Source: Candidatus Omnitrophota bacterium
GTDB taxonomy: Bacteria > Omnitrophota > Gorgyraeia > 1-14-0-20-64-10
Reading direction: 5' to 3'
Assembly: GCA_016201735.1 (NCBI GenBank)
Contig: JACQCH010000017.1
Span: 7,910 to 71,909, forward strand
Length of the DNA: 64,000 nucleotides
Under the pieces are notes generated by a model that did not search any database, was not told where the DNA came from, and saw nothing but the letters and a program-made list of their open reading frames with translations. Positions within the stretch are counted from its first letter, which is position 1, and each line of letters opens with the position of its first letter. Positions 4,882 through 61,655 of this stretch are shown here, piece by piece. The position numbers were made by a program, and so were the translations under genes.

Positions 4882-5996
4882 ATTCCAATGTCATCCTCGC
4901 TAAAGCGAGGATCAGATTCCCGCTTTCGCGGGAATGACGGATCTCGAGATTGCTTCGGCTCTTCGAGCCTCGCAATGACCTCCCCTATCTTCTTCAACAG
5001 TTTCGGGACTCCCTCGCCAGTCTTGGCGGAGATCGGAAGTACCGTTCCCTTAATCTTCTTCTTGAACCGGGCCAGGTTTTTGGCGGCGGCCGGCTCGTCC
5101 ATTTTGTTGGCCGCCAGGATTTGCCGCTTGGCGGCGACCGCCGGATCGTACAGCTTCAATTCCCGGTTCAACGTCTCGTAATCCTCCACCGGGTCCCGGC
5201 CGTCCGCCCCAGCCATATCGATCAAGTGGACCAGGAGCGTGGTCCGTTCAATGTGCCTTAAGAACTCCAGCCCAAGCCCCTTTCCCCGGTGGGCCCCCTC
5301 GATCAAGCCGGGGACATCCACGGCGACGACGGAGTTCTTGGAGGGAAGCGTCACCGCCCCCAGCACCGGATGGATCGTCGTGAAAGGAAACGGAGCGATC
5401 TTGGGCCGGGCCTGCGAAATCTGCGCGATCAAGGTGGACTTGCCGGCATTGGGAAGTCCCACGATCCCGACGTCCGCGAGGAGTTTCAGTTCCAGCCGCA
5501 GACGTCTGCGTTCACCGGCCGCCCCGTCCAATTTGCCCGGCTCTAAGAGACGGATATCCCGGGAAGGAGCCCAGGAAGAAGTGGACCGGGACCTTTCCTT
5601 GGAGGCGTTGCCGACCCCGCCGGCCCCGCCCCGGGCGATCAGCATTTCATCACCGGGTTTGAGCAGTTCCTGGATCAGCTCGCCGGTGTCGGCGTCCCAA
5701 AGGAGTGTTCCCAAGGGGACGTTGATCCGGCAGTCGGTCCCTTGAGCGCCGTGCTGTTTCTTGGAAGAGGCGTTGCCGCCGTGCCCGGCCCGGAAATGCC
5801 GTTTGGCTTGGAAATCGAGGAGAGTGGTTAGCTGCGGGTTGGCGCGAACCAGGACATGGCCGCCCCGGCCCCCGTCCCCGCCGTCAGGGATTGCATGCCG
5901 GGTCCAGCGATCCTGGTAAAACGAACGGCACCCCTTGCCGCCCCGGCCGGCTTCCGCGAGGATGGATGCTTGGTCGACGAAACGGGTCGTTCTCAC
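4878..5996 (-). CDS. obgE: GTPase Obg/CgtA
   Basis: 372 aa; Obg fold N-terminus ([21 protein letters not shown], glycine-rich), G domain [10 protein letters not shown]; conserved rplU-rpmA-obg context. Confidence 0.9.
4895..4990. repeat. cluster of three tandem REP-like hairpins (GTCATCCTCGCTAAAGCGAGGATC; ATTCCCGCTTTCGCGGGAATGAC; GATTGC...GCAATGAC) lying inside the 3' end of obgE coding sequence
   Basis: Seen directly; translated in-frame as obg C-terminal tail ...[25 protein letters not shown]; third hairpin resembles unit inside aroA insertion (32216..32250). Confidence 0.6.
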
Positions 5997-18787: not shown

Positions 18788-18807
18788 CCCTGATTTCCTT
18801 ATTCATC

Positions 18808-19287
18808 CGAACAAGGCCCGATGCCGGGAGCGGACCGCTCCACGCCAGGCCCCGTCTCGTGGATGGGCTTCTCAGACCCGCTCGACGTCCCCAGCGAGGC
18901 CGTCTCGCTAAACGTCGGCCCTCGCTCTCTCCGCCGAACCCAAGCTCACCGGCGGAGAACCATGCCCGCTCGGGCCTCCGATTGTCTTCGAACCCCCTCC
19001 CCGAGCCGGAGCCATCGCATGAGACCTTCGGGGTGGCAGGGGGCAGGCCAGATTCCGCCAGCAGGGCCGACGTTTCAGGCCCATGCCCTGACCGAATGGG
19101 AACCCAAGCTGAAATGAACGACTTTCCATGGAACGTCCTGTTGGATTCGGCCATCTCCCGATGCTCTGACATGGTCAATGTGAACCATTCATCCGAACAA
19201 GGCCCGATGCCGGAACTGGCCTGCCCCCTGACAGGCCCCCGAAAGAAACAGGGGTGGTACCAGTCCAGCATCGCTGTGAACCATTCA
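18808..19287. mobile_element. MITE-like repeat, copy B, flanked by 9-bp direct repeat TTATTCATC (18799..18807 and 19288..19296)
   Basis: ~480 bp non-coding element filling entire pilB-pilC intergenic space; shares core and terminal sequences with copies at 7630..7876 and 25975..26469; ORF-track ORFs inside (18780..19295, 18859..19665) are repeat-derived. Confidence 0.65.
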
Positions 19288-25873: not shown

Positions 25874-25974
25874 AGGCGTACCCATTGGCGAGTATGGCTG
25901 ATTGTTGCTTATCTGTGCAAGACTCTGGCAAATCCACGCAATGTGTACATTGCACAATTGGTACCGCTTCCGGG

Positions 25975-26469
25975 GTCCTGGCGTGGAGCAGTCCGTTCCC
26001 GGCATCGGGCCTGTGTTGGAACTACGAGAGGACCCCGTCTCGGGGGATGGGCTTCTCAGGCCCGCTCGTCGACCCCAGCGACTCAGAGCTTACAAGTGGT
26101 GCGGCCTCCTCTAGCCGCAGCCACGTGGTCGACTTCGCTAATCGAAAATCCCTCGCTCGTCCCCGGAATTTCAGAGCGCGGGGGACACCATGCCCGCTTG
26201 GGATTTTCATTGCCTTCGAACCCCATCCCCCGAGCCGGGGTCCTCGCAGATTCGTCGATCCTCGGGGTGGCGGGGAGCGGTCCGATTCCCGCCAGCAGTG
26301 CCGACGTTTGAGGCCGAGCTCTGTTGAATGGAAACCCATGCTGAAATGTACGACTTTCCATGGAACGTCCTGTTGGGTTTGGCCACCTGCCCATGCTCTG
26401 ACATGGTGAATGTGAACAACCCATCCGAACAAGGCCCGATGCCGGGAACGGACCGCTCCACGCCAGGAC
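25975..26469. mobile_element. MITE-like repeat, full-length copy C with ~45-bp terminal inverted repeats
   Basis: Left end GTCCTGGCGTGGAGCAGTCCGTTCCCGGCATCGGGCCTGTGTTGG vs right end CCGAACAAGGCCCGATGCCGGGAACGGACCGCTCCACGCCAGGAC (about 41/45 complementary); no credible ORF; contains sub-repeat module (26078..26130) that also occurs inside aroA and an alpha/beta hydrolase gene. Confidence 0.7.
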
Positions 26470-26510
26470 CCCGAAGGAACTAGGAGAGGATTAAATTTCT
26501 GGGAGGTGGA

Positions 26511-31728: not shown

Positions 31729-33111
31729 TCAACGGCGAATCGACTCTAAGATCTCGACGAATTCGGGGAAGGAGATATCGATCCACTCCGCCCCCTCGAT
31801 CGTGGTCTGCCCTTTCGCCGCCAACCCGGCCACGGCCAGCGCCATGGCGGTCCGATGATCGTTGAAACTTTTGACCCGGGCCCCTTTCAAGGGAACGGGC
31901 CCTTCAATCCGGATCTCATCTCCCTCGGCCTGAATCTTGGCTCCCATCGCCGTCAGACCCGTCGCCATCGAAACAATCCGATCGGCCTCCTTGACCCGGA
32001 GCTCCCCCGCTCCTTGAATCAGGGTGATCCCTTGGGCTTGAGTCGCGGCCACCATCAGGATCGGAAGCTCATCAATCAGCCCTGGAATCGCCGCCGGGCC
32101 GACCCGAATCCCTTTGAGCGGCGCATGGCTCACCGTCACATCCCCGACCGGCTCCCAGGAGTCCACGTCATGGCTGCGGTTAGAGGAGACCGCACCATTT
32201 CTAAGCTCTAGGTCATTGCGAGCGACCAACGGGAGTGAAGCAATCTCGCTTTTAACATTCGCCCCCATTTGCTTCAACATCTCCAAGAAGCCGGTCCGGG
32301 TCGGATTCAGGCCGACTTGACGGACCGTCACGGAGGATCCGGGAACGATCGCCGCGGCCGCGAGGAAGAAGGCGGCGCTGGAAATATCCCCGGGGATGGT
32401 GAGATCTTTCCCCTTCAGTTCCGGGCCGGGAACCAGGGTGATCTCCGGGCCTTCCCTTTTAATCTGCGCTCCGAAATGCTCAAGCATCCGCTCGGTATGG
32501 TCCCGGGTGGGGATCGGCTCGACGACCGTCGTGGGTTCCTTCGCGTAGAGAGCTGCCAGCAGGAGAGCCGATTTGACCTGTGCCGAGGGAACCGGAAGCG
32601 TGTAGAGGATCCCATGCAGACCTCCGCCCCGGACCGTGAGCGGCAGATGATCCGCCCCATCCGGCCCTTGGATATCCGCCCCCATCTTCCCGAGAGGTTC
32701 GGTAACGCGGCGCATCGGCCGCTGGGAGAGAGAAGCATCCCCGCTTAAAGTCGCAGAGAAAGATTGCCCGGCCAGCAGTCCCAAGAGGAGCCGTGTCGTC
32801 GTCCCGGAATTGCCCATCTCCAGGGGGGAGGAGGGAGTTTTAAAACCGTAGAGCCCGCGGCCCTCGATAACGACCCTCTCGGCTTCCTCTTGGATCCGGA
32901 TCCCGAGAGCCCGGAGGGCCCGCCGCGTCGATTCATTGTCTTCCGATTCCAGGCAATGATCGATCCGTGTTGTCCCTTGGCTGACCGCGCCCAAGAGCAG
33001 GGCCCGGTGAGAAATCGATTTGTCTCCCGGAAGGGACAGTTCCCCTCGGAGAGAATGAGCCGGAGAGATCGTCAGGTGTGCCATGTGGATGAGGGAACCA
33101 ATTCCGTTCAC
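31729..33111 (-). CDS. aroA: 3-phosphoshikimate 1-carboxyvinyltransferase (EPSP synthase) carrying ~90-bp in-frame repeat insertion
   Basis: 460 aa; LPGDKSISHRALLLGA, EPSPS fold motifs; extra segment SLPLVARNDLELRNGAVSSNRSHDVDSW coincides with repeat at 32161..32250. Confidence 0.85.
   Translation of the reverse strand: MNGIGSLIHMAHLTISPAHSLRGELSLPGDKSISHRALLLGAVSQGTTRIDHCLESEDNESTRRALRALGIRIQEEAERVVIEGRGLYGFKTPSSPLEMGNSGTTTRLLLGLLAGQSFSATLSGDASLSQRPMRRVTEPLGKMGADIQGPDGADHLPLTVRGGGLHGILYTLPVPSAQVKSALLLAALYAKEPTTVVEPIPTRDHTERMLEHFGAQIKREGPEITLVPGPELKGKDLTIPGDISSAAFFLAAAAIVPGSSVTVRQVGLNPTRTGFLEMLKQMGANVKSEIASLPLVARNDLELRNGAVSSNRSHDVDSWEPVGDVTVSHAPLKGIRVGPAAIPGLIDELPILMVAATQAQGITLIQGAGELRVKEADRIVSMATGLTAMGAKIQAEGDEIRIEGPVPLKGARVKSFNDHRTAMALAVAGLAAKGQTTIEGAEWIDISFPEFVEILESIRR
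32161..32250. repeat. composite REP-like insertion inside aroA (sub-repeat of MITE family + GGTCATTGCGAG...GAAGCAATC hairpin)
   Basis: ~85% identity over ~54 bp to reverse complement of 26078..26130; second half resembles hairpin in obg tail (4955..4990). Confidence 0.55.
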
Positions 33112-33165
33112 CCTGAGTCCCCGATCGAGTCGGGGGCAAGCTTTGTCGAAGGGTGAATGGATATG

Positions 33166-35720: not shown

Positions 35721-35790
35721 CCGTTCGTGCTGAGCCTGTCGAAGCACGAACCTCCATTAGTTCACCCTTCGACAAGCTCAGGGTGAACGG
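35721..35790. repeat. 70-bp nested-palindrome REP-like element occupying the lspA-lgt intercistronic gap
   Basis: CCGTTCGTGCTGAGCCTGTCGAAGCACGAAC ... TTCACCCTTCGACAAGCTCAGGGTGAACGG; two hairpins that are also mutually complementary; same family as 1078..1110 and 52932..53009. Confidence 0.6.
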
Positions 35791-36666: not shown

Positions 36667-36826
36667 CCCGCCCCTCCATGGATCGGGACGCCAAAACTGC
36701 GCTCAGGAGCACTGTGGGCGTCCCGAAAAGCTCCATGAGCTTTTATTCTCTGGGGCAACCCGGAAATTACCCTCATGCTCATCCTCCCTCCATGGCCCCA
36801 GAGAAATCCATGGAGGGGCGGGGTCA
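36663..36826 (-). promoter_or_regulatory. structured GC-rich inverted-repeat element between ileS stop and dksA start; outer arms TGACCCCGCCCCTCC / GGAGGGGCGGGGTGA pair and would sequester dksA SD + GTG
   Basis: On minus strand: ileS stop TGA is first 3 nt of 5' arm; inner stems UCUCUGGGGC/GCCCCAGAGA and GGGACGCC/GGCGUCCC; homologous element upstream of ADH at 42458..42691. Confidence 0.5.
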
Positions 36827-39694
36827 TCGTAAACCGAGAGTATACCACATGTTCACCGTTTCCACGCACCGATGGCACAGGGCCGGATGCTCCGAAGAAG
36901 CCCCTACCGAAGGCAGCCGCATCCAGCAGCGCTGGCACTTGGACCCGGCTGCCGGGCGGACATTCATCTGAAGTGCCGGGCCGGGCCCGGATCCCGGGAC
37001 AATCTCCAGTTTCGAAACGATGCAGGCCAGCTCCAACTCCGACCGGCGCTTCGTCAGAAAGTCCAACGATTCCTTATCCTGGACCAGGATCTCCAACTCC
37101 GCTTCCAGAGAATCTCCGATCTGGCCTCCCTCTCGCGCCTTCTCCAACGCCTTCATCGCCTGGTCTCTGAACTGAATCAGGCGGGCCCAGTCCGCTTCCA
37201 GCGATCGGTCCGGCGGCAGACCCGGAGAGATGGGCCAATCCTGCAGGTGCACGCTCCGGCTGCGGTTGGAGGAAACCGCACCAGGCGCCTCGGCGCTCCC
37301 GCCGCTGGGGAGCCCGAAGGCGGTCCAGGCCTCTTCCGCCGTCAGCGGAAGGATCGGGGCGATCAGGCGGATCATTGCGTCGGTCAGGATTGCCAGAACG
37401 GTTTGAATCTCCCGCCGCTGGGGATCCTTGGGGTAAAAAGTGTACAGCCGATCCTTGATCACATCGAGATAAAAGTTGGAGAGGATGCCCGTGCAGAATT
37501 CATGGATCTTCTTGACCGCCCGGTGAAACGCATATTGCTCGTAGGCATCGGTCACCTCCCGCACAAGGGCACCAAACTGCAGAAGTATCCAGCGGTTGAG
37601 CCCCTGCATCTTCTCCAGCGGGACCCGGACTTCCGAGGCCTGGAAATCGGACAGGTTGGCCAGCATGAACCGGAGGGTGTTCCGGATCTTCCGGTACACC
37701 TCGGCGGTCTGCGACAGGATCTCCGGTGAGATCCGAACATCTTCCCGATAGTCGGAGGCGGCCACCCAGAGCCGCAGGAGATCAGCCCCCAGCGAGGAGA
37801 CCACCTCCTGCGGAGCGGTGACGTTCCCCAGCGACTTCGACATCTTCCGCCCTTGGCCGTCCACGACGAACCCGTGGGTCAGCACCGCCCGGTAAGGGGC
37901 CTTCCCCTCCAGCGCCACCCCGGTGATCAGCGAAACCTGGAACCAGCCCCGGTGCTGGTCCGATCCTTCCAGGTACATGTCGGCTGGGACTGCGTGATCT
38001 TCGCGGCGCTTCAAGACGGCTTGATGACTGACCCCGGAATCAAACCAGACATCCAGGATGTCGGTTCCCGGTTTGAAATCGGATTTGCCGCATTTGCATT
38101 TCAATCCGGCGGGGAGCCACCGGCTGACCGGCTCGCTGAACCACCGGTCGCTCCCCTCCGGGTCCTTCTCGATCTCTTTCGCGAACCGGTCGATCACCCG
38201 GGAGTCCAGAATTCCTTCTCCGCAGCCAGAGCAGATCACCGCCGGGATCGGGATCCCCCAGAGCCGCTGGCGGGAGAGGCACCAGTCCGGCCGGGTCTTG
38301 ATCATGCCGGCCATCCGCTCCTTTCCCTCCGGCGGGATCCATTGAACCTGTTTCTCGACGGCGTCGAGCAGTTTCCGGCGGAGATCCTCATGCTCGACGT
38401 TCAAGAACCATTGGTCGGTCGCCCGGAAGATGATCGGGTTGTGACACCGCCAGCAGTGTGGATACTGATGTTCCTCTTCGCCGGCTTTCACGAGAGCTCC
38501 CCGTTGTTTGAGCAGTTCGATGACGGCGGGATTGGCTGTCTGAACCTGCTGGCCGTTAAATTGTGCGACTTCTTTGGGCAAGCCGACGAACTGTCCCCGT
38601 GAATCGACCGGCGCCAATACCTCCAGCCCGTATTTCTTTCCGATCGCGTAATCCTCAGCTCCGAACCCGGGCGCCGTGTGAACCAGCCCCGTCCCGTCCT
38701 CCGAGGAAACGTAATCAGCCAGAATGACTTTCCCTTCCCGCAATCCAAACGGATGCTGATAACGAAGTCCGTCAAGATCGCGACCGCGAAATCGATGAAA
38801 GATGGAGCTGGGATCTTCGGACAAACCGAGATCTTTTTGGGCCACTTCTGGCAAACGGGCCAGCGTCACCCAGATTTCATCCGGGTTAGTTCCTTTTCGC
38901 GCGACGTATTCATAATCCGGATGAATCGCCACGCCGACATTGCCCATCAATGTCCAGGGAGTGGTTGTCCAAATCACTAAATAGGCCTTCCGTGGCTGGA
39001 TTCCAAGAGGATTCATCCTAAGAGCGGCGTTCTTTTCCAATTCAAACTTCATGTAGATCGAGGGAGAGCGGTGCATCTCGTACTCCACCTCGGCCTCGGC
39101 CAGGGCGGTCTCGCAGGACCAGCACCAGTTGACCGGCTTCCGGGCCCGATACACGAAACCTTTCCCGACGAGCGTGCTCAAGACCTGCAGGGCCGCCGAC
39201 ACGTACCCCGGCTCCAGCGTCAGGTACGGATGCTCCCAATCCCCCTGAACCGCCAGCCGTTTGAACTGATCCCGCTGGATCCCGACGTATTTCATGGCGT
39301 AGGCCCGGGCCTTGCGGCGGAACTCCAGCGTGTCCACCTGATGCTTGGTAACCTTCAGCTCCTTCATCAGGGCGTACTCGATCGGCAGACCGTGGCAGTC
39401 CCAGCCGGGAATGTACGGGGCCTTCCTCCCCCGCATCCCTTTGTACCGGACGATGAAATCCTTGAGCACCTTGTTCAAGGCATGCCCGATGTGAATGTCC
39501 CCGTTGGCGTACGGCGGCCCGTCGTGGAGGACAAAGGCCGGCGCCCCCTTCCGGTGTTCCAGGAACTGGGAATAAAGTCCTTCCCGTTCCCATTGGTCCA
39601 GGATCTTCGGCTCGCTCTGAGGGAGATTTCCCTTCATCGGGAAAGAGGTCTTCGGCAGGTTCAGGGTCGATTTGTAATCGGTCACCGGATTCAC
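36824..39694 (-). CDS. ileS: isoleucyl-tRNA synthetase
   Basis: 956 aa; HIGH (PYANGDIHIGH), KMSKS, C-terminal zinc-binding Cys cluster. Confidence 0.95.
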   Translation of the reverse strand: MNPVTDYKSTLNLPKTSFPMKGNLPQSEPKILDQWEREGLYSQFLEHRKGAPAFVLHDGPPYANGDIHIGHALNKVLKDFIVRYKGMRGRKAPYIPGWDCHGLPIEYALMKELKVTKHQVDTLEFRRKARAYAMKYVGIQRDQFKRLAVQGDWEHPYLTLEPGYVSAALQVLSTLVGKGFVYRARKPVNWCWSCETALAEAEVEYEMHRSPSIYMKFELEKNAALRMNPLGIQPRKAYLVIWTTTPWTLMGNVGVAIHPDYEYVARKGTNPDEIWVTLARLPEVAQKDLGLSEDPSSIFHRFRGRDLDGLRYQHPFGLREGKVILADYVSSEDGTGLVHTAPGFGAEDYAIGKKYGLEVLAPVDSRGQFVGLPKEVAQFNGQQVQTANPAVIELLKQRGALVKAGEEEHQYPHCWRCHNPIIFRATDQWFLNVEHEDLRRKLLDAVEKQVQWIPPEGKERMAGMIKTRPDWCLSRQRLWGIPIPAVICSGCGEGILDSRVIDRFAKEIEKDPEGSDRWFSEPVSRWLPAGLKCKCGKSDFKPGTDILDVWFDSGVSHQAVLKRREDHAVPADMYLEGSDQHRGWFQVSLITGVALEGKAPYRAVLTHGFVVDGQGRKMSKSLGNVTAPQEVVSSLGADLLRLWVAASDYREDVRISPEILSQTAEVYRKIRNTLRFMLANLSDFQASEVRVPLEKMQGLNRWILLQFGALVREVTDAYEQYAFHRAVKKIHEFCTGILSNFYLDVIKDRLYTFYPKDPQRREIQTVLAILTDAMIRLIAPILPLTAEEAWTAFGLPSGGSAEAPGAVSSNRSRSVHLQDWPISPGLPPDRSLEADWARLIQFRDQAMKALEKAREGGQIGDSLEAELEILVQDKESLDFLTKRRSELELACIVSKLEIVPGSGPGPALQMNVRPAAGSKCQRCWMRLPSVGASSEHPALCHRCVETVNMWYTLGLR

Positions 39695-44784: not shown

Positions 44785-45705
44785 TTGAAGATGCGGATCT
44801 GCTCCCTCCTCCCCACCGCCACCGAGATGCTGTACGCCCTGGGGCTAAGCCGTTCCGTCGTCGCCCGAAGCCAGCACTGCAGTTATCCACCCCAGGTCCG
44901 GGCGAAGCCCGTCGTCGTGACGAGCCGCGTCAAGAAGATCGCCAAGCAGGACAGTTTCGCCATTCACCAGGCGGTCCTCAAACTCCAGCAGGAGGGAGTC
45001 CACCAATTCCAGATCGATCTGCCCGCCTTAAAGCGTCTCAAGCCGGACTTGGTGATCACCCAGAATCTCTGCTCCGTCTGCGCCGCTCCTCATCCGGAGG
45101 TTTCCGCCGTTCTGCAGCATCTCTCCCCTCGCCCCCGGCTGATCTCCATCAACTCCCAGCGGCTCGATGAGATCTTTACCGAGATCCGGAAGCTTGGAGA
45201 AATGACCCATCGGGAAAAAGCAGCAATCCGCTTGACGCACCAGCTTCAACAGCGGATCGACCGGGTCCGGCAATTGGTCTCTCGAACCTCCTACCGGCCC
45301 CGTGCCTGGGTCTGCGAGTGGCTGGAACCGCTGATGGCGGCCGGCCATTGGATCCCGGAGATGGTGGAGGTGGCCGGCGGCGTCGATGGGCTGGGGGTGA
45401 AAGGAAAGGATTCCATCTGGCTGAATTGGGAGCAGGTGCGCCGCTACGATCCGGAGGTGATCGTGGTGATGCCCTGCAGTTACTCAATCTCCCAAACCCT
45501 GCGGGAGAAGAAGCGGCTCACCCAGCGCCCCGGCTGGAAATCTTTATCCGCGGTGAAGCAAGGAAGGGTGTTTGCCCTGGAAGGAAGCTTCTTCCATCAC
45601 GCCGGGCCTCGCCTCGTCGACGGGATCGAGCTCCTGGCCCACCTGTTCCACCCGACCCAAGTCCCCGGAAATTCCCTCTGCCGTCATTACCGCGCATTGA
45701 CCTAA
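44785..45705 (+). CDS. class III periplasmic-binding-protein-fold protein (BtuF/FecB-like ABC substrate-binding domain)
   Basis: 306 aa; PDLVITQNLCSVC and EVIVVMPC motifs typical of cobalamin/siderophore binding proteins; no obvious signal peptide. Confidence 0.55.
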   Translation: MKMRICSLLPTATEMLYALGLSRSVVARSQHCSYPPQVRAKPVVVTSRVKKIAKQDSFAIHQAVLKLQQEGVHQFQIDLPALKRLKPDLVITQNLCSVCAAPHPEVSAVLQHLSPRPRLISINSQRLDEIFTEIRKLGEMTHREKAAIRLTHQLQQRIDRVRQLVSRTSYRPRAWVCEWLEPLMAAGHWIPEMVEVAGGVDGLGVKGKDSIWLNWEQVRRYDPEVIVVMPCSYSISQTLREKKRLTQRPGWKSLSAVKQGRVFALEGSFFHHAGPRLVDGIELLAHLFHPTQVPGNSLCRHYRALT

Positions 45706-46373
45706 TTGGGCTCCAATCCCTTGGCAAGCGTTTCACGCCACTCGTTGAAAAACCCCTGCAGCTCCTGGAAAGGAATCGGTTCCAAGAGCCACAGCATTTC
45801 GGGCATTTCCTCTTTGAAGGTTTTGATCCGCTCCAACGCTACCGCAAGCCAATAAGAATCAAAACCGGGATCCTTTCTTTTGGCATTCTCCATCAGCTCG
45901 TTTGGCTGAAAGCCCCCCTTCTTGACCAAAACATAGAGGTCGATGAAATCTCTCAAGGCCGCTCGGCCAAACAAAGCCAACAGTTTATTGGAAGCGATGT
46001 CCACCAGACTGTCCACTTTCAGGCGCGGATATTCCGGAAACTCCTTGACCGGCTCAAACCGAAAAGGGGCGTCCTGGGCCAGTTGGATCAACGTGGACTC
46101 GCCGGATCGCTCAACGAATAGTTCGACGAACGAATGGAGACCCCTCTGGCGCTCAACGGAAATCCCTTTGGCTCTAAGCACTCCCTCTAGTCGACGACTG
46201 AACGGCTCAACCAGCTCCTCCGTCACCGTGAAAAAGTCCAGATCCTGACTCTTCCGATGGTGAAGGTAAAACTGCGCCAAGGCGGTCCCACCCGTCAGAT
46301 AAAATTGTTCGCTTTCCTGGATGGATGGGAAATTTCGAAGGATAAAATCTTGAATCTTACTGATGACCTGCAA
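45702..46373 (-). CDS. nucleotidyltransferase AbiEii/AbiGii-family toxin (type IV TA / abortive infection, DUF1814)
   Basis: 223 aa; FYLTGGTALAQFYLHHRKSQDLDFF hallmark; lower GC than flanking chromosome. Confidence 0.75.
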   Translation of the reverse strand: MQVISKIQDFILRNFPSIQESEQFYLTGGTALAQFYLHHRKSQDLDFFTVTEELVEPFSRRLEGVLRAKGISVERQRGLHSFVELFVERSGESTLIQLAQDAPFRFEPVKEFPEYPRLKVDSLVDIASNKLLALFGRAALRDFIDLYVLVKKGGFQPNELMENAKRKDPGFDSYWLAVALERIKTFKEEMPEMLWLLEPIPFQELQGFFNEWRETLAKGLEPN

Positions 46374-46669: not shown

Positions 46670-49600
46670 TTACGCGAAGATCAGGAGGGCCTCGCCGAAG
46701 TCCCCCCCCTTGAAGAGGCGATGGAGCACCACGATCGAGCCCGGCTCCAACAGCCCCTGCTTCTGTAAATATTGAAGCAGCCCCGCAGTTACTTTAGAAG
46801 CGGTCTGATCATTGACTTGAATCAGCACTTGATCCCGCCGAATTGAAACATTATCGCCCCCAATCACAATCGCCGCTTCCTCCAGAGTCTTCGCCCATCT
46901 AATCAACTTCTTGTCAATCGCATCGTGAAGCCCCGGGGTCACCTGGCCCAACCACCCTTGCTGCACATAGACCGGAACCTCCGTGCCAACGAATGCCTCT
47001 TCAAGCACTGCCGGCGGAACCATCCGGGCGAGGCCCTCCCGATATCCAGCATTTTCTGCCAGCTTCGAAAGGCCGTCGAATTTATCCGCGACATCCACCA
47101 CCCGTTGCGGATCGATCAGATATAGCAGGGTATCGGCAATGACCCGCCGGGCTATGAATTCGTTCAACATATCCCGGGCCTCCTCCGCCGTCGGCGGCGC
47201 CGCCAGCGCCGGCACCGGCGCTTCGGTCTTCTTCACCTCCTCCATCCCGGCGCGCAAGCCAAACTCCCTTGCCACGTCTGGAGCAAACCTTAGTACCTCC
47301 TCTTCAGAGAGCCGAGTAAGACTCCCATTTCTCATAATACGGGCATATTCGGGTAAGAAGCTATTCTGCGGATTGAGATATTTAACGTAGACATCGCCCC
47401 TTACCGTGAATGCGCTCACATTGTCCAGAGAAATGTGCCGCCCCAAATCCAAGAAGTGGACTTCCAAATACCCATCGTCCCCCGGTTTAGGTTTACCAAG
47501 TCGGAATTCCATGCCGGGGCGATTTTCAGGTGCGTCCATGTATGCAGTCTTGAGATGGGATTCCATCGCCGCACGCTTCATGATGCCCAACTCCTGCCTC
47601 ATCTGAGCATCAAGAGATTCCTCGGCAACTTCGGTTATGCCTTTCCTTGTAATACGCAAATAGACGGGAGTATAAGCTCGTTTGGGATCAAGACGTCGCA
47701 CATAAACGTCTCCGCCAAACGACGTAAAACCCGTCACTTTCGTCAACCTGTTTTCCTTCCCAATATCCTTTTGGTGCACATAAAGAAGCTCTGCGGATTC
47801 TACCAAACTAAATGCGATTCCAAGACGGGTGTCCGGATGAACTCTATTTATCTGACGATCCAATTCGTTATAAGACATGCGAGTGCCCAATGGGGCGATG
47901 ACATCCCCACGCAGAAGGCCTACCGTCGGCGTTACTTCTGCCACGTCATCACTATCAACGAGATACTCCCTACTCTCAACCCTAAGTAAAACCTTCCTGC
48001 CGTCGGAACTCAGGCCTCGAACCACATCCCCATTGACAAGAAATCCTTTCGGCACACGCTCTTTGAATCCGATATCTCCCCGGCTGTTTGGATGTATCCA
48101 CTCGATGACATTGACATATCGACCCTTAGGATCTACTACATCAACCATCTTTGTCCCACCATCTCTTAATCTATGTGCCCTCAATCCGTACAAAGGATGC
48201 CCCTTGAGCTCTTGCTTGAGGCCACTGAACAGGTCAAATGCGGAACAGAGCACGTCAGCAGCATCGCGGGCCTGTTCGTCTGTCACGACAGGTTTGAACC
48301 CATCAAACGAAATAGGCACTGGAGTGAGAACCTGAGGAGGAACCCTGGCTGGTTCCGGGGTATGTGGCTGTGGAGTAGGCGTTGTTAACGCATCGTAACC
48401 GATCTTTCCAACTACCCCAGCAGCAGTCCCTAATACTGCCCCCACTGTCCCCACCAGAAGGTCCCGCCTCGTTAAGCCTCTTCCCTTTTTTCCCTCCTCC
48501 AGCCCGGCGGCGGGAGAAGGTGGTTCTTGCTCCCATTTAATCTCCGCTTCCTTAAAATCCATTTTGGCGACAAGCTGCGCTAAAACTGCTTTAAGGACCT
48601 TTTGAATATCTGGGGCAGCTTCCCATCGAGCGAGCCCCCATTCCTCCTTTGAGAAATCGTTGAGGATTGGATTGAATTCCTCGCCCAGCTCGCGACGGTG
48701 GTCAGGTGTAATCTTAAATTGATCCCAATTCATACCGATAAAAAGCCCCAGATCAAATGCGGATATGCCTTTCTCTTGAAATTTCTTTAACAATTTTTTC
48801 TCTGGCTCCTCCAGCCCGGCGGAAGTCTTCTTCTCAAATGGACCCGAAAGGAGTTTGATTTCAAGCTCTAGCTCATCCGGAAACGCGGGGGGAAGTTCAT
48901 TGACTTGAAATTGATAATCGGACAACCCGTCAGCGAGCAGGCGTTCCCTTACGCCATCCAGAACTGTGGGAACATTGGACCACCCCTGAATCGCCACAGG
49001 AACTTTAACCGCATCTCCCCTCTCCAAATCCAAAGCCCTCTTCGGAAAACCGACCAGATTGATGGTTGCCGCTTTACTCACGCTCTTAAGAATTCCTTCA
49101 GCCTTCTGCCATGCCTGTTGTGGAGACAGCCCCCCCTCCAACTCGGCGGCGCCCGGTAGTCGATCGTTGTAGAGAATCATGGCCAGAGCAAGGGCATCTT
49201 GCCTCACGTCAACAATTCCACGGAGATCCAGTTCCAATCCTCTCCGTGTGAAAGCATACGACAGCGTTACTGAATCGCCCTTGATATCCTCCGTGGGTTT
49301 CTTGATGTCTAGATAGAGTAATGCGCCATCCGGACCTACGGATCCGTGGAGAGGTATTGTGTCTGACATCGTTATTAGATCCGCCATCTCTCCTATTCCC
49401 CTAAAAACGGCTTCAATCCTCTTTATGTTGCCCTTGACAACGGGGTCGTCAGCGCGCGTGGGATCTGAAGCTAGTTGAGCTCTAAGGACCTCAAGCCGGG
49501 ACGCAGCCTGAGTGATTGCCAAAGCCGTTCTTTCCAGCCCGTTGAGCTGGCGATTCATGAACTCGTAGGAGCGGTGATTGACTTGCGGGGAAAGTCTCTC

Positions 49601-52600
49601 CCTCTCTTTGCTAAGTGCAGTTTTATCCGATTCCTCCCGAATTGACCGGATCGTTTTCTCCAGCTCATTGAGCCGTCCGTTCAATCGCCCTGCAAGATTT
49701 GTGCGTAATCTTTCCATGTCGGCTAGAAGATTCCGCCCTTCTTGAAGTAAACGTCCAGCATCCTCATGGGTCATATTCTCTCCGGACAAATCCTGCCACA
49801 AGGCATTCGCCCTCGGAGACAACTTCTTGGCTTCGTCCGCCCCCGTTATGATCTCATTCGACGAATGGATCTGTGCCATGAGAATTTGAAGGAATTCCCG
49901 CAGGTCCGGATTAACAGGACGAGGCAGATCAGAAACTTGGCGAAGTTCCTCTATTTCGCGCCGAGGAAGGAAAACCCGTGCCCCAGATCGGCCCTCTTCT
50001 CGTATCAACAATCCTTTCTCAGGAATAGATTGGAATGCAACGTGCTTTCTCGAGATATGTTGAGGAGCTTCAACTCCCAGGAGTCCCGGTTTACTGCTCT
50101 CGCCTCTTCCAAAACCAAACTTCCCTTCAGAATCAAAAGGGATCATCCCTTCCCCTATTTTTCTCGGATCTGCGAACCAGAAGCCGCCCTTTCCATCCCA
50201 GGCGAGAATTCCCTGGATTAAACCGTTCGGTTCAATAGGGTTTTTATCTATACGATCTGTTACGACATAGACCGTGATTGCCCCAGGTTCTCTCAAGGCG
50301 TTCGGGGAAATAAGAATTCCTCCACCCGGAACTCCAAGAAGCTTCCTCTCTTCAACCCGATTTTTGTAATCGAACATGAGTGAGCTTCCCGTCACTCTAG
50401 ATTCCACTTTCTCGACCTTTCGATAGGTCTTCTGGACCAAACCGTCCAAGTCCAAGTCGGCAAGCTCCCTGGTCTCTTCCAGCCCAGCGAGATTGTTCTG
50501 GACAAACCAGACGTCCGATTCCACCTCCGCCGTGGTGATCTGCGTCCCATCCAGGAACCTCACCTCCGTCTCGCCTCCCTCCATCGGGACTGAATAGCTG
50601 ACAATCCGGACCGCGTCGTCGGGTCCCCTCACCCGATCCCCGCCGCGCAAATTCCTCAGATCTGGCCCCGTCAGCGCCTTCCACTGCTCTAACTCCTCCA
50701 TCCCGGCGGCGGTACGAGTACCCCAGGACCGCAACCCTTCCCGGACAGCGTAGAGGAACGTAAGGAATTCTGATGATTTCCGAGAAGGCAGGTTCTGTCT
50801 TTCTTTACCTATCTCCCGCAGGATTAATCCGTTGATCTTTAAGAGAACCGGATCGGTACTGAGATCTACGACTTGGCGATCGATATAATGTTTAAAAAGG
50901 AGGTCGCCTACTTCCCTCGCCAGATCCTCCCTTGCAGAATCCTGGACGAGACCTCCGAGAGAACGAGACGCTACCAACCGGTCTACAACATGATTCCGGA
51001 GTGCCTCTCGATCGGAGGTCCATTGCAATCCTCTCCGGAGTGACTCCATTTGGTTATCATCAAGAAAAACATCACCGCGAATGGGCTGCAGGCGGATTGC
51101 ATCTCCATCCTGCGTGATCTTCATTACCTTTGTCTTCTTAACTGTAAGAGTGCTTCCACTCTCCTTAAAAGGTTGGCGTTCCTCCTCTCCGGATTCATTT
51201 GTGGATACAAGATCAAAGCCGCTGCCGTTCCACTGAAGGGTAACCATCTGCATGCCCGGTATCTCGATCATCAGACCCCTCGTCAACTGGGCCGCAGCAA
51301 CTCCGGCAACTGGGATTCGCAGTCCACCCTTAGGAACCTGCGCCTGCTTAACAACAGTCCCATACTGCAACACGGTTTTCTTCGAAGCCGTCCGGAACCA
51401 TGCCGCGAATTCCTCTCCAGCGGCACCAAACAACTTCCGCTCAGGAGCAGTCCCTTCTGCTTGAATCCCAATTTCTTCAATCTGTGATTGAATCGCCTTA
51501 GGGGTACTGAGGATAAGAACGGGTTTCCCACTTTCTCCATCGGGCTCATGCCTAACCATGAATAATCTGGGTATCTTATAATCCCTACCACTATTCAGGC
51601 TCCTTTTCTTGCCCTTGGAATTTGAAAGCACAACCTTTCTATCTTTACCCTCGGCAAGTTTAAAGCGCGCCTCCTTCCCGGGCTGGCGCGCGGCAAGATT
51701 CAAGGGCCCTGACAGAACGACGGGCATCCTTACCTCTTCTCCCGACTTGAATCGAAATAGGATGCGCTCGCCAGGTTGCAGGCGGATGGGCCCCTCAACA
51801 ACGCCAAACGAACTTTGGTCGGTTATCTTTCCAGAAAGGATGAGCTCTAACAACTTATAGCGGCTCACCACGAACCGCACCTGCCCGTTCTCTCCCGGAA
51901 CCTTCATCTCCGCCAGTTGCCCAGGGTTAACACGGTGTAAAGCCGCAAGGTATAAATCGGCGGTCTTGTCTCGATAAACGGCCCCGTCAACCGGTTTCCT
52001 TTTTTTACGAAGTTTTTGGATATCCGCGATAACTTGCTCCGCCACCTTGCGCATATCACCGTTGCCCAGGCCGGACTTCGCAAGGCGGTCCAACGCCTTC
52101 TGCACATCTCCGCTCTCAGCTTTACCCAGCAAGGTCTTAACCACCGCCGCGCCAGCGAGTTCGGCAGCCAGTTCTTGAGTCATTATCCCTCCAGATCCGC
52201 CAATACGTGAATCGGCCCACTCTCTGGAGAAATTCTTTGCCGCTGCAAAAGGATGATGTCGATTCGACAAAGCAATAATCAAGGCGACTTTTTGCCATGA
52301 AAGCTGGCTCATGATCTGCGAATAAGCTCTTTCCACTCGTGCCTTTTCTTCTGGAGTCACTCGAGTGCCCGTCGTGAGTTTGAATTGAAGGACCTGGTAA
52401 GCTCCAATAACAGCCATCTCTCTTTTTAACCTCCCCCACGCTGCCTCGAGCTCCGCATCGGTTGGCTGCACGAATCTTCTGAGAACTTTCAAGGAGGGGG
52501 CCTTAAATGTTCCCCCTTCCATGCCGGCGGCGGGGGCGGAGTTCGGGGCGGCGCCGAGGGCTTTTTCGAGTGCTTCGAGACCGGCTTCCTGCTGTTTGAT

Positions 52601-52720
52601 TTCATTGGGACGCAGGGCGAGGGCGGAATTAGGCAAGGCAAGGCATAGACTTAGGAAAAGGGCCAAAATTCTGGGATAAAAAAATAGTTTCTGACTCATG
52701 AAATTTCCTTTGTACCTCAA
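46670..52720 (-). CDS. giant (2016 aa) orphan secreted protein with internal Tat-like/TM segment; no recognisable catalytic domain
   Basis: Sec signal MSQKLFFYPRILALFLSLCLALPNSALA|LRP; long mixed alpha/beta region; coiled coil ~aa 1100-1210; GRGLTRRDLLVGTVGAVLGTAAGVVGKIG then Pro-rich linker (~aa 1520-1570); C-terminal ~450 aa with internal duplications (GDVYVRRLDPKRAYTPVYLRITRKG / GDVYVKYLNPQNSFLPEYARIMRNG); DNA ~50% GC vs ~65% surroundings. Confidence 0.7.
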   Translation of the reverse strand: MRYKGNFMSQKLFFYPRILALFLSLCLALPNSALALRPNEIKQQEAGLEALEKALGAAPNSAPAAGMEGGTFKAPSLKVLRRFVQPTDAELEAAWGRLKREMAVIGAYQVLQFKLTTGTRVTPEEKARVERAYSQIMSQLSWQKVALIIALSNRHHPFAAAKNFSREWADSRIGGSGGIMTQELAAELAGAAVVKTLLGKAESGDVQKALDRLAKSGLGNGDMRKVAEQVIADIQKLRKKRKPVDGAVYRDKTADLYLAALHRVNPGQLAEMKVPGENGQVRFVVSRYKLLELILSGKITDQSSFGVVEGPIRLQPGERILFRFKSGEEVRMPVVLSGPLNLAARQPGKEARFKLAEGKDRKVVLSNSKGKKRSLNSGRDYKIPRLFMVRHEPDGESGKPVLILSTPKAIQSQIEEIGIQAEGTAPERKLFGAAGEEFAAWFRTASKKTVLQYGTVVKQAQVPKGGLRIPVAGVAAAQLTRGLMIEIPGMQMVTLQWNGSGFDLVSTNESGEEERQPFKESGSTLTVKKTKVMKITQDGDAIRLQPIRGDVFLDDNQMESLRRGLQWTSDREALRNHVVDRLVASRSLGGLVQDSAREDLAREVGDLLFKHYIDRQVVDLSTDPVLLKINGLILREIGKERQNLPSRKSSEFLTFLYAVREGLRSWGTRTAAGMEELEQWKALTGPDLRNLRGGDRVRGPDDAVRIVSYSVPMEGGETEVRFLDGTQITTAEVESDVWFVQNNLAGLEETRELADLDLDGLVQKTYRKVEKVESRVTGSSLMFDYKNRVEERKLLGVPGGGILISPNALREPGAITVYVVTDRIDKNPIEPNGLIQGILAWDGKGGFWFADPRKIGEGMIPFDSEGKFGFGRGESSKPGLLGVEAPQHISRKHVAFQSIPEKGLLIREEGRSGARVFLPRREIEELRQVSDLPRPVNPDLREFLQILMAQIHSSNEIITGADEAKKLSPRANALWQDLSGENMTHEDAGRLLQEGRNLLADMERLRTNLAGRLNGRLNELEKTIRSIREESDKTALSKERERLSPQVNHRSYEFMNRQLNGLERTALAITQAASRLEVLRAQLASDPTRADDPVVKGNIKRIEAVFRGIGEMADLITMSDTIPLHGSVGPDGALLYLDIKKPTEDIKGDSVTLSYAFTRRGLELDLRGIVDVRQDALALAMILYNDRLPGAAELEGGLSPQQAWQKAEGILKSVSKAATINLVGFPKRALDLERGDAVKVPVAIQGWSNVPTVLDGVRERLLADGLSDYQFQVNELPPAFPDELELEIKLLSGPFEKKTSAGLEEPEKKLLKKFQEKGISAFDLGLFIGMNWDQFKITPDHRRELGEEFNPILNDFSKEEWGLARWEAAPDIQKVLKAVLAQLVAKMDFKEAEIKWEQEPPSPAAGLEEGKKGRGLTRRDLLVGTVGAVLGTAAGVVGKIGYDALTTPTPQPHTPEPARVPPQVLTPVPISFDGFKPVVTDEQARDAADVLCSAFDLFSGLKQELKGHPLYGLRAHRLRDGGTKMVDVVDPKGRYVNVIEWIHPNSRGDIGFKERVPKGFLVNGDVVRGLSSDGRKVLLRVESREYLVDSDDVAEVTPTVGLLRGDVIAPLGTRMSYNELDRQINRVHPDTRLGIAFSLVESAELLYVHQKDIGKENRLTKVTGFTSFGGDVYVRRLDPKRAYTPVYLRITRKGITEVAEESLDAQMRQELGIMKRAAMESHLKTAYMDAPENRPGMEFRLGKPKPGDDGYLEVHFLDLGRHISLDNVSAFTVRGDVYVKYLNPQNSFLPEYARIMRNGSLTRLSEEEVLRFAPDVAREFGLRAGMEEVKKTEAPVPALAAPPTAEEARDMLNEFIARRVIADTLLYLIDPQRVVDVADKFDGLSKLAENAGYREGLARMVPPAVLEEAFVGTEVPVYVQQGWLGQVTPGLHDAIDKKLIRWAKTLEEAAIVIGGDNVSIRRDQVLIQVNDQTASKVTAGLLQYLQKQGLLEPGSIVVLHRLFKGGDFGEALLIFA

Positions 52721-57193: not shown

Positions 57194-58199
57194 AGACCTT
57201 CTCCCCCACTTTAAGTTTGAGAAGCCGCAACGCCTCTCTGCTGACGAAACAGCGGCCCCGATCCACCTGGGCCCGAATCCGGACCGCTCGGAAGAAACCG
57301 CCCGCATCGGTCCCAACCAGAAAAGCAGGAGATTGCTTCGCCCTTCCAGGGCTCGCAATGACGGCGGCCTTCAGCCGGCGCATCTGGCGGATGAGCCGCA
57401 CCCGCCGGCGATCAGCACTGTAATAAGGCCCCCCGTCGAACGGCTCGATCTGCGCAAGCGCACGAAACCCAATTCCCCTTAAAAGTCCCGCGGCCCGCCG
57501 GGCGGCCGGATGAATGGCCCCGATCGCTTCCTGGACCGATTCCGGCAGGAGGGCGCAGTAGATCGGCTCCCGGGGAAAAAGATTCAGGATGAACTCCTTG
57601 TTCGTGACCGAGAGCCGGTCCGCCTTCTGATAAGGGAGCCCGGTGAAAACCCGGCCGACCGCCTCCCAGAAGGGACTCTTGTTCCCGGCTCCCATCGCCC
57701 CCCGGTATTCCACCAGGATTTTCCTCTCAAAGCGGTCTGGGTGGATTCCCATATAGAGGAAGCGGACATAAGAGATCTGGAGGCCGCAGACCTCCGGATG
57801 CTTCCGGTAGCCGGGGAGGACCACCAGCCCCCCCACCTCGGTCGGCCCATTGACCGTGTATCCCAACCGGAGGACCTGATGCGACCGTCGAATGCCCAAG
57901 GTGCGGCTCTGCTTCCTTATCTTTTCCAGCCCCAGCCAAAGATGCGGGCGCCCCGGTGTGCCATGTTTTCCGATGATCAGGGAACAGCCGACTAAGGTAC
58001 CGGGTACCGTTTTCCCCTCCAGAACGAAAAGATACTTCGCCTTCGCCTTGGGCAGCTTTCCGGCAAACGAGGCCTCGGAATCCCGGAGGAGCTGCCGGAT
58101 GTATCCCCGATCCGCCGGCAGATTGTAGGAATCCAGCAGTCTGGCCAGCTGGAAGAGGCCGGAGAAATCGGATGGACCCGCCTGCCGGATCAGGAACAT
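57171..58199 (-). CDS. astA: arginine/ornithine N-succinyltransferase (AstA/AruF family)
   Basis: 342 aa; family-level similarity (LFVLEGKT...GCSLIIGKHG, GNKSPFWEAVGRVF). Confidence 0.6.
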   Translation of the reverse strand: MFLIRQAGPSDFSGLFQLARLLDSYNLPADRGYIRQLLRDSEASFAGKLPKAKAKYLFVLEGKTVPGTLVGCSLIIGKHGTPGRPHLWLGLEKIRKQSRTLGIRRSHQVLRLGYTVNGPTEVGGLVVLPGYRKHPEVCGLQISYVRFLYMGIHPDRFERKILVEYRGAMGAGNKSPFWEAVGRVFTGLPYQKADRLSVTNKEFILNLFPREPIYCALLPESVQEAIGAIHPAARRAAGLLRGIGFRALAQIEPFDGGPYYSADRRRVRLIRQMRRLKAAVIASPGRAKQSPAFLVGTDAGGFFRAVRIRAQVDRGRCFVSREALRLLKLKVGEKVYVCPLSR

Positions 58200-60650: not shown

Positions 60651-60665
60651 CCGAGCCGGGGCCGG

Positions 60666-61655
60666 ATGGCCATGGCTGGGTTGCTGATCGTAACGCTGAG
60701 TGGATGTGCGTCGGTTCCGATGACGGGTCAAAGTACTGATCATCCTCCTCTGTCCGAAAAATTAATTTCTTATTATGCATATCCGCGGCAATCCTTAGAA
60801 GCGACCGTGGAATCGATTCAGGAGAAGTCCGGGTATCGGATCCGGCACCTGCATCTGGCCGCACCGAACGATTCCGCCTTCCGCCCGATCCGGATTGATT
60901 TCTACCAATCCAATCGGCCGGGGCGGCTGCGGCTAGAGGGAGCCGCACCACTTGTAAGCTCTGAGTCGCGCCTGCCGGTGGTTCTGATGTCCCCGATCCT
61001 GGCGGGGAATGATCTGTACATCCGGGAGTTCGCTCAGTATTACGCGGCGCGGGGCCTGCATTCCGTAATCGTCTACCGGCCGAAGGAGGTTTTCTCCGCG
61101 GACCGGGACTTGAAAGACATTGAAACCCATTTCCAGGAATCGATCATCCAGCTGCGGCGGACGATCGATTGGCTGGAGACACTGGACTCGGTCGACCCCC
61201 GGCGGATCGGATCCTTCGCCATCAGTCTCGGAGCCATCCTCACCATTCCCCTGGCGGCGGTGGAACCCCGAGTGAAAGCTCATGTTTTTGGAATGCCCGC
61301 GGGACACCTCGCCCAGGTGATCATGACCTCCAAGGACAGAACGATCCGAAAACGACGCAGGGCCTATCTGGAAAAGCACGGGTGGAGTCAGGAAGAGGGA
61401 CTGCGCCAGCTAAAAGCGGTGATCGTTTCGGAGCCGATGGAATTCGCCTCAGGGATCGATCCTGAAAGAGTCCTGGTGATCGCGGGACTTTTTGATCGGG
61501 TCCTGGGAGTCCGGCGGTCGCTTGATCTCTGGCAGGCGATGGGCCGGCCGAAACTGATCGTGCTTCCGACCGGGCATTACTCGGCTTACCTGGCCACCCC
61601 GTACCTGAAGATCGTCACCTACTCGTTCTTCCGCCGCCAACTAAAGCTTAAATAG
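60666..61655 (+). CDS. lipoprotein alpha/beta hydrolase (dienelactone-hydrolase-like) with ~40-bp in-frame repeat insertion
   Basis: Start MAMAGLLIVTLSGCAS (lipobox LSGC); AISLG nucleophile-elbow variant; segment LRLEGAAPLVSSESR encoded by repeat at 60935..60975; upstream 118 codons of ORF 60312..61655 are repeat-derived. Confidence 0.55.
   Translation: MAMAGLLIVTLSGCASVPMTGQSTDHPPLSEKLISYYAYPRQSLEATVESIQEKSGYRIRHLHLAAPNDSAFRPIRIDFYQSNRPGRLRLEGAAPLVSSESRLPVVLMSPILAGNDLYIREFAQYYAARGLHSVIVYRPKEVFSADRDLKDIETHFQESIIQLRRTIDWLETLDSVDPRRIGSFAISLGAILTIPLAAVEPRVKAHVFGMPAGHLAQVIMTSKDRTIRKRRRAYLEKHGWSQEEGLRQLKAVIVSEPMEFASGIDPERVLVIAGLFDRVLGVRRSLDLWQAMGRPKLIVLPTGHYSAYLATPYLKIVTYSFFRRQLKLK
60935..60975. 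repeat. sub-repeat module (GAGCCGCACCACTTGTAAGCTCTGAGTCGCG) inserted in frame in hydrolase gene
   Basis: Reverse complement matches 26080..26110 in MITE copy C and 32165..32215 in aroA. Confidence 0.5.

Follow-up and report, generated by a model that had tools for sequence, protein, structure and literature searches.

The aroA gene of a metagenome-assembled genome (MAG) assigned to Candidatus Omnitrophota, at positions 31729 to 33084 on the minus strand of a 64,000-nucleotide stretch of contig JACQCH010000017.1 (hereafter the window), contains within its coding sequence a segment made of two different short hairpin repeats, one of which lies nested at the end of the other. The gene, presumably essential as part of the shikimate pathway, starts with an ATG at 33084 and encodes a 5-enolpyruvylshikimate-3-phosphate (EPSP) synthase of 451 aa. 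The repeat-derived segment (32167..32255, minus strand) encodes approximately residues 278-306 (KSEIASLPLVARNDLELRNGAVSSNRSHD), as judged by codon comparison with the loci L001 and L003; it keeps the reading frame open, is absent from the closest orthologues, and consists of repeats that recur in other genes and other lineages. It most probably reflects two successive insertions of very small, non-autonomous hairpin repeats, here termed modules A and B, into the turn of a surface beta hairpin of AroA.

The insert and its host protein

The host protein is a full-length EPSP synthase, with a match to Pfam PF00275 that covers residues 9-446 (E = 2.7e-118) and with the invariant motifs of the family in place. 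Its sequence is identical to NCBI MBI3615512.1 (P0001 among the homologues), a record from a 90.6-kb contig of a Candidatus Omnitrophota MAG annotated simply as AroA. All of the 90-odd invariant columns of a 24-sequence AroA alignment are kept, including the LIDELP, KE-DR, and DHR motifs. The best solved relative is the AroA of Bacillus halodurans (PDB 3rmt, E = 5e-118), and the alignment to this structure splits at the insert: query residues 6-280 align with chain residues 9-283 and residues 306-449 with 286-430, leaving residues 281-305 (IASLPLVARNDLELRNGAVSSNRSH) without a counterpart. The nearest homologues, P0003 (71% identity) and P0002 (68%), both lack the insert, and their loci have the gene order rluD, coiled-coil gene, aroA, mreB, mreC in common with the window. 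At the insert site, these two proteins form an 8-residue loop (MGASVQ-IQPKSSES-WEPVGD and MGASIQ-VTPTPPGG-WEPLGD), and the window protein reads MGANVK-SEIASLPLVARNDLELRNGAVSSNRSHDVDS-WEPVGD. Compared codon by codon with the closest syntenic orthologues, window aroA has a net gain of 23 codons; the 120 closest AroA homologues have a median length of 428 aa, compared with 451 aa for the window protein.

On the mRNA strand, the segment reads GTT AAA AGC / GAG ATT GCT TCA CTC CCG TTG GTC GCT CGC AAT GAC / CTA GAG CTT AGA AAT GGT GCG GTC TCC TCT AAC CGC AGC C/AT GAC GTG, where slashes set off the two modules. A preliminary description of this DNA had reported a composite repeat inserted in frame in aroA, and this claim is borne out by the repeat matches inside the window, the open frame, and the gap in the alignment to 3rmt. 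The site it gave, 32161-32250, differs slightly from the repeat-derived span, approximately 32167-32255; the insert of 30 aa that it proposed exists as a repeat-derived insert, but its net size is 23 codons. The alignment to orthologues and structures that it recommended is the one given above, and conservation of the insert across distant AroA proteins, which it had named as grounds for rejecting an insertion, is not seen: the insert is not conserved among AroA sequences.

An AlphaFold2 model of the window protein, run with the 24-sequence alignment, has a mean predicted local distance difference test (pLDDT) score of 90.5 and a predicted template modeling (pTM) score of 0.88. The pLDDT falls below 50 only at residues 286-307, which form the turn connecting strands 276-283 and 313-319 of a beta hairpin. 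In the predicted structure, the insert therefore sits in a surface loop of the enzyme, and, judging from the conserved motifs and the modeled fold, window AroA is probably still active.

Two nested modules

Members of the module A family follow the pattern GTCATTGCGAG-variable hairpin-GAAGCAATC, and the aroA copy reads on the opposite strand. Its arm of 36 nt (32212..32247, minus strand) has the mRNA-strand sequence GAGATTGCTTCACTCCCGTTGGTCGCTCGCAATGAC and encodes EIASLPLVARND, with the same end motifs as the canonical copies at 4945-4981 and 57329-57362. The adjoining 8 nt (32248..32255, minus strand; mRNA strand TTAAAAGC) match the spacer of an inverted doublet at locus L007, described below, and probably belong to the inserted A element, with a boundary that is uncertain by a few nucleotides. 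The sequence CATTGCGAG occurs four times in the window against an expectation of 0.53. By BLAST, the ends of the obg-tail element recur exactly in the aroA insert, as a 13-mer (AGGTCATTGCGAG) and a 12-mer (GAAGCAATCTCG). The preliminary description had compared a hairpin in aroA to the one in the 3' tail of obgE; the shared words agree with this likeness, but the two-tier hairpin that canonical module A copies form on folding is not formed by the aroA copy.

Both canonical copies in the window lie in coding DNA. The first (4945..4981, minus strand; inner stem GGCTC/GAGCC intact) contributes to the Obg C-terminal tail (gene 4878-5996, minus strand). For the last ~25 residues of Obg (window 4878-4985), module A provides the first part of the coding sequence and a second palindrome family, TTCCCGCTTTCGCGGGAATGAC (IPAFAGMT on its other strand), the rest; because the 3' end of the gene is encoded by these two repeats, the Obg stop codon itself lies in repeat DNA. 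The other copy (57329..57362, minus strand; inner stem GCCCT/AGGGC intact) reads VIASPGRAKQS within an astA-like gene for arginine N-succinyltransferase (57171-58199, minus strand). This protein differs in length from PDB 1yle by only 3 residues, and the sequence comparison suggests that module A may have replaced rather than extended a loop.

A nearly identical relative of the aroA copy of module A is found in a related genome, that of the AroA homologue P0031 (61% identical to window AroA). Locus L007 of this genome contains an intergenic inverted doublet, GTCATTGCGAGGAACGAAGTGACGAAGCAATCTC - GATTTAAAAGC - GAGATTGCTTCGCTCCCGTTGGTCGCTCGCAATGAC, of which the end of the spacer and the right arm are identical to the aroA segment at 43/44 nt and encode the same peptide, KSEIASLPLVARND. 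The arm alone (32212-32247) matches L007 2452-2487 at 35/36 nt, and the spacer reads TTTAAAAGCGAGATTGC in L007 and GTTAAAAGCGAGATTGC in aroA. Given the 43/44-nt match, module A of aroA is best described as one arm of a specific doublet subfamily resembling REPINs, in which repetitive extragenic palindromic (REP) elements are paired. The L007 doublet (2407-2487) sits between convergent genes; an rseP-like gene, whose product ends in MSLRGTK, has its stop codon within it. An open reading frame (ORF) on the opposite strand also runs into the doublet, so that automatic gene calls reach into the repeat DNA from both sides.

Module B, the second component, spans 40 nt (32172..32211, minus strand; mRNA strand CTAGAGCTTAGAAATGGTGCGGTCTCCTCTAACCGCAGCC), encodes LELRNGAVSSNRS, and contains a hairpin UGCGGU/ACCGCA with a 6-bp stem and an 8-nt loop. 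In a BLAST search of 32140-32270 against the window, positions 32171-32209 match the reverse complement of 26085-26123 at 35/39 nt (89.7%, E = 1e-7). Over the full 40 nt, we count 34/40 identical positions by eye, in agreement with the identity of about 85% that the preliminary description had given for a module of its copy C of a miniature inverted-repeat transposable element (MITE). Further BLAST matches of module B within the window are to 60925-60962 (32/38 nt, 84%) and 37258-37283 (24/26 nt, 92%). The aroA copy scores 50.3 bits (E = 2e-10) in a covariance model built from 15 distinct module B copies, a score that is partly by construction, as the aroA copy is among the 15; a search with this model of the window and 17 related loci gave only one further, marginal match (L015 4093-4128, 22 bits).

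The order of the two insertions can be read from the junctions. Module A ends in ATGAC, and a second ATGAC on the mRNA strand (32167..32171, minus strand) follows module B as a direct repeat of the first. Removal of 45 nt yields GCT CGC AAT GAC GTG GAC, which restores the canonical A end CGCAATGAC, now joined directly to GTGGACTCC, and keeps the frame; hence, module B was inserted after module A. This ATGAC repeat flanks the aroA copy of module B. Long-form copies elsewhere begin with GCGAC or ACGAC, and in other copies GCGAC is present on the left side but not on the right; neither module is bounded by terminal inverted repeats of its own. The ATGAC pair could represent a 5-bp target duplication; alternatively, the left ATGAC could belong to a module B of 45 nt, and the right one could be the original end of module A, displaced by B. 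Among the long-form B copies compared, none besides that in aroA is preceded by module A, and a 33-aa query spanning the A+B composite had no match among 1.84 billion representative proteins, a weak test with so short a query. As no composite peptide and no other A-preceded B copy were found, the composite appears to have arisen in place rather than to have moved as a unit.

Copies in other genes, genomes, and replicons

Three further copies of module B are present in the window. The first is a 26-nt core in ileS (37258..37283, minus strand; ileS 36824-39694, minus strand), approximately 5 kb from the aroA copy, which is read in frame as PGAVSSNRSR in the anticodon-binding domain; the IleRS structure 8c9f has a 12-residue gap exactly at this segment. 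The aroA and ileS copies share the reading frame and the same T-A stem variant, and the flanks of the ileS copy are those of a short subfamily. A long-form copy in the opposite orientation (60925..60969, plus strand) reads RLRLEGAAPLVSSES in a putative lipoprotein ORF (60312-61655, plus strand). This ORF has no Pfam match; weak alpha/beta-hydrolase matches begin at residues 213-220, directly after the RLRLEGAAPLVSSES segment. The remaining long-form copy (26078..26122, plus strand) lies outside genes, within a MITE-like composite (25967-26473) bounded by 42-nt terminal inverted repeats (98% complementary) and containing internal inverted repeats; the ORF that overlaps it has no Pfam match. Partial relatives of the composite lie at 7658-7860, 18804-19245, and 60495-60595, most of them flanked by genes for type IV pili and type II secretion.

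The 26-nt core of module B, scanned in one genome per species, occurs in 12 copies in 8 other genomes (loci L004-L015), all titled "uncultured Planctomycetia"; because P0031 comes from one of them, these genomes represent relatives of the window organism. Host genes, identified by Pfam, include those for Dxr and SerA, where the module is internal and in frame, and for a malate/lactate dehydrogenase (Mdh), where it lies in frame between two domains. The module is likewise internal and in frame in an HD-domain hydrolase. It forms the C-terminal tail of PyrD and of an aldo-keto reductase, lies in the N-terminal region of an LptC-like protein, and follows just after the signal peptide in three orthologous large secreted proteins; the copies at L004 and L012 have no identifiable host. 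In-frame insertion of this one repeat family thus extends over several unrelated genes (IleRS, Dxr, Mdh, SerA, and the HD hydrolase). Where the HD hydrolase copy could have a TAG in the loop, the frame used has AAG, as would be expected under selection for an open frame; this argues for translation through the module. In the three secreted proteins (L005 3660-3715, L013 2630-2685, L009 2325-2380), module B and a GCAGCCAGG.ACTGGCTGC hairpin together form a block of approximately 52 nt.

AroA itself has been hit repeatedly. Signature peptides of the repeats (IAS..RND, VIA..KQS, SLSNH) are present in 11 of the 120 closest AroA homologues, in at least 16 repeat segments located in three loops, near residues 140, 210-230, and 276-307. 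The ten other insert-bearing proteins (P0008, P0018, P0019, P0021, P0031, P0035, P0042, P0050, P0052, and P0059) belong to the same broad lineage, and P0031 and P0042 have three inserts each. We read the DNA of three of them (P0008, P0042, and P0031, at L023, L024, and L025). In the loop occupied in the window, P0008 carries module A in the same orientation (AAGATTGCTTCGGCCCCCTCGGGGCATCGCAATGAC) and P0042 in the opposite orientation (GTCATTGCGAGCGCCGAAGGCGCGAAGCAATCTC), both with an intact inner stem, and P0031 carries a more complex reverse copy. Independent insertions in related lineages have thus affected this loop of AroA and two others that are structurally equivalent. All three insertion sites come after an MGAxI strand, whose coding sequence is ATGGGNGCNAANAT. 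The EPSP synthase fold is composed of repeated beta-alpha-beta-alpha-beta-beta units, and the three sites would correspond to equivalent turns of these units. The repeated hits after MGAxI may indicate either structural tolerance or a DNA target. In a further homologue, P0039, the form IVSLARND looks shortened in frame, as judged from the protein sequence.

Module A extends well beyond this lineage. Its pattern is found in at least 120 viral contigs (L026-L145), with at least 157 copies; the viral-contig copies listed combine conserved outer sequences with freely covarying inner stems, have a pyrimidine-rich 5' flank, and are often paired as inverted doublets. Doublets are present in L007, L015, and several viral contigs. 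The canonical 35-mer matches at 32/32 nt a plasmid of Methylosinus trichosporium OB3b (NZ_CP023738.1, L146 1501-1532), and further copies lie on plasmids of Methylocystis, Novosphingobium, Halomonas, Legionella, and the heterocystous cyanobacteria Calothrix, Aulosira, Trichormus, and Tolypothrix. Among the matches listed, the viral and plasmid copies are always in unannotated DNA. The viral contigs contain neither the aroA-specific variant of module A nor, as far as found, module B. At the gathering threshold, Rfam has no match in the whole window, and a permissive Rfam search of the aroA insert and the obg copy gave chance-level results only (E > 0.3; best CRISPR-DR4, 16.9 bits, E = 0.44). 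We found no relevant literature on the DNA motif, on the peptide signatures, or on palindromic repeats in Omnitrophota. This suggests that module A is a common element that has so far had no formal description.

Origin of the insert and relation to known repeats

In the history that we propose, one arm and the spacer of a REPIN-like doublet (module A) would have entered aroA, and a hairpin element of 40-45 nt (module B) would then have inserted at the ATGAC end of module A. The result could persist because the frame was kept, the frame used contains no stop, and the loop would tolerate extra residues without disturbance of the fold. Approximately 27 repeat-encoded residues would be transcribed and translated as a neutral or nearly neutral passenger. 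More generally, such hairpin repeats may insert widely, with only those copies surviving in coding DNA that keep the frame, lack stops, and fall in tolerant loops or tails. This view is favored by the open frames that are used, by the change of TAG to AAG in the HD hydrolase, and by the apparently shortened form in P0039. The elements presumably are, or were, mobile, and the likeliest mobilizer would be a trans-acting enzyme that recognizes single-stranded DNA hairpins, of the RAYT or the IS200/IS605 type. Single-strand transposition of this kind is suggested by the inverted doublets (PMC3116915) and by a conserved GAC at the left flank without a clear duplication.

Several observations weigh against this history. 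No filled-site and empty-site alleles were recovered in metagenome contigs, in which the closest aroA is 42% identical and whose index lacks the exact protein, and no transposase or RAYT (Y1 transposase) domain was detected by Pfam among more than 40 ORFs scanned in the 64-kb window. The boundaries do not add up cleanly, with ~89 nt that look repeat-derived against a net gain of 69 nt; probably, either the ancestral loop lost some of its sequence or the module limits are misplaced by a few nucleotides. The hairpin energies of the aroA copies are no better than those of shuffled sequence (z = -0.14 to -0.65), with -10.3 kcal/mol and z = -0.65 for module B; the ileS copy of module B alone stands out (z = -2.97), and we did not use folding energy as evidence. 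Covariation in the module B stem amounts to one pair, changed from C-G to T-A in two copies; the search pattern set the rest of the stem. Finally, the 52-nt block is almost invariant in the three secreted-protein orthologues, whose flanks can barely be aligned. To judge by the sequences, this pattern fits constraint or gene conversion better than neutral decay; repeated insertion at one site is a third candidate.

Conservation of this kind would also be expected if the modules were retained in coding regions for a role at the level of nucleic acid, such as a protein-binding site, mRNA processing or stability, or a pause between folding units, with the peptide as a by-product. We consider such a role improbable. 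It would account for the 26-nt module B core, which most of the 12 copies from 8 genomes share unchanged despite their different hosts, for the 52-nt block, invariant at most positions, for the one covarying stem pair of module B, and for the outer sequences of module A, kept around a covarying inner stem both on viral contigs and on alphaproteobacterial, gammaproteobacterial, and cyanobacterial plasmids. However, recent spread or recognition by a mobilizing enzyme explains this conservation equally well, and the occurrence of both orientations and four reading frames argues against a strand-specific role in mRNA. In addition, the occupied sites (loops, tails, and positions after signal peptides) would tolerate any peptide, the folding energies are ordinary, and the modules have no Rfam match.

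Inactivation of aroA by the insert, leaving either a recent pseudogene or a gene made dispensable by aromatic amino acids obtained elsewhere, is very unlikely. In favor of such decay is the replacement of T367 by alanine in the RVKEADR motif, a position that is nearly invariant in the 24-sequence alignment, but the ORF is full length with its 90-odd invariant columns intact, and the predicted fold is undisturbed outside the loop. Comparable inserts also persist at the same loop in several diverged lineages, and the apparent in-frame shortening in P0039 implies long-term translation. Even less credible is a repeat-induced chimera of assembly or binning: the source is a MAG, and a single contig is the only record of the exact protein, but the aroA sequence continues collinearly and in one frame on both sides of the insert, the modules, at 36-45 nt, fall below the usual length of assembly k-mers, and analogous in-frame copies are present in independent assemblies from other studies. 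Three other explanations were set aside on the features of the sequence: an intein, for which the segment lacks splicing motifs and is much too short; translational bypassing, given the open frame; and chance resemblance of a lineage-specific loop to the repeats, given the E value of 1e-7 and the 43/44-nt match in another genome.

The aroA segment resembles several known systems. Translational-bypass inserts, such as that of T4 gene 60 and the byps of Magnusiomyces mitochondria, are short GC-rich hairpins in essential genes with identical flanking codons. The GAC codons on both sides of module B, 45 nt apart, resemble this arrangement, but bypass inserts break the frame or bear stops, whereas the aroA insert is in frame and open. 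The small dispersed repeats of 21-27 nt that Elhai and colleagues (Elhai et al., 2008) reportedly found in Nostoc-type cyanobacteria are said to form hairpins with compensatory changes, to be nested, and to be confined to one cyanobacterial subgroup. The present modules are likewise tens of nucleotides long, mobile-looking, and nested, with a conserved hairpin, and module A lies on plasmids of Calothrix, Aulosira, Trichormus, and Tolypothrix; compared by description, however, module A is longer and more widely distributed. Classical REPs have a conserved 5' GTAG, which the modules lack. REPs and REPINs are short imperfect palindromes, often arranged as inverted doublets with a short spacer, that are mobilized by RAYTs and are extragenic (Bertels and Rainey 2011, PMC3116915). 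Module A shares their size, high copy number, palindromic character, and inverted doublets, of which the aroA copy corresponds to one arm and the spacer, but it departs from their extragenic location in that copies are translated in aroA, obg, astA, and other AroA genes.

Bacterial MITEs (ERIC, BOX, Correia, Nezha, and QMITE) are known to create in-frame fusions (PMC10969869). The aroA modules resemble these in being non-autonomous and in extending or interrupting ORFs in frame, and module B also occurs in the 500-bp composite with 42-nt terminal inverted repeats; unlike MITEs, they have no such repeats of their own in aroA, and the sole candidate target duplication, ATGAC, is ambiguous. The closest parallel is provided by the Rickettsia palindromic elements (RPEs), palindromic sequences of ~100-150 bp with a conserved peptide of 30-50 aa that are inserted in frame in Rickettsia housekeeping genes (Ogata et al. 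2000, 2002, as summarized in PMC10969869). As with RPEs, dispersed palindromic repeats are found in frame in unrelated housekeeping genes, translated at sites compatible with the fold, and also between genes, and the aroA insert has the corresponding functional traits: a dispersed repeat, in frame and stop-free, in a conserved gene and absent from orthologues. The modules differ from RPEs in size (34-45 nt overall, 36 nt and 40-45 nt in aroA, well below 100-150 bp and 30-50 aa), in nesting, in host lineage, and in the distribution of module A across several phyla and viral contigs. Functionally, then, the aroA insert is an instance of the RPE phenomenon, but not a member of the RPE family, from which it is set apart by size and lineage rather than by comparison of consensus sequences.

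The aroA insert extends the "selfish DNA in coding genes" known from Rickettsia to an Omnitrophota-like lineage and to many of its housekeeping enzymes. Core enzymes (AroA, IleRS, Dxr, Mdh, and SerA) can carry, in translated form, repeats that hardly exceed a REP in length, and repeat insertion presents a route to new protein loops. The recurrent hits in AroA show where EPSP synthase, which is of interest to agriculture, tolerates insertions, and amount to a natural map of such sites. Automatic annotation overlooks these segments, which add spurious peptides such as EIAS..ARND, VIAS..AKQS, and GAASSSRS to many proteins predicted from MAGs. What might go beyond the known kind is how widely module A is distributed and how densely in-frame copies populate essential genes. 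A more speculative reading, which we put forward only tentatively and do not favor, is that modules A and B represent a new class of hairpin mobile elements of 35-45 nt that crosses phyla, travels on viruses and plasmids, and colonizes essential coding regions in the Omnitrophota-like lineage. If so, they would be a broad and ongoing source of surface loops and C-terminal tails, with an RPE-type process well beyond Rickettsia, and could have a mobilizing enzyme of their own or a function at the nucleic acid level.

A third palindrome family, GTTCGTCCTGAGC..GAAGGACGAAC, is present in the window at 33106-33158, 1081-1110, 35723-35790, and 52934-52962, and its peptide would be FVLSLSKDE or RPEPVEG. 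The copy at 33106-33158, just upstream of the aroA start, contains a nested hairpin (CCCCGATCGAGTCGGGG), and the copies at 35723-35790 form an inverted doublet. The AroA homologue P0050 carries a peptide of this family, VSLSNHD. Elsewhere in the window, an ORF of 2016 aa (46670-52720, minus strand) adjoins an AbiEii-type toxin gene (45702-46373, minus strand), which encodes a nucleotidyl transferase of a type IV toxin-antitoxin system.

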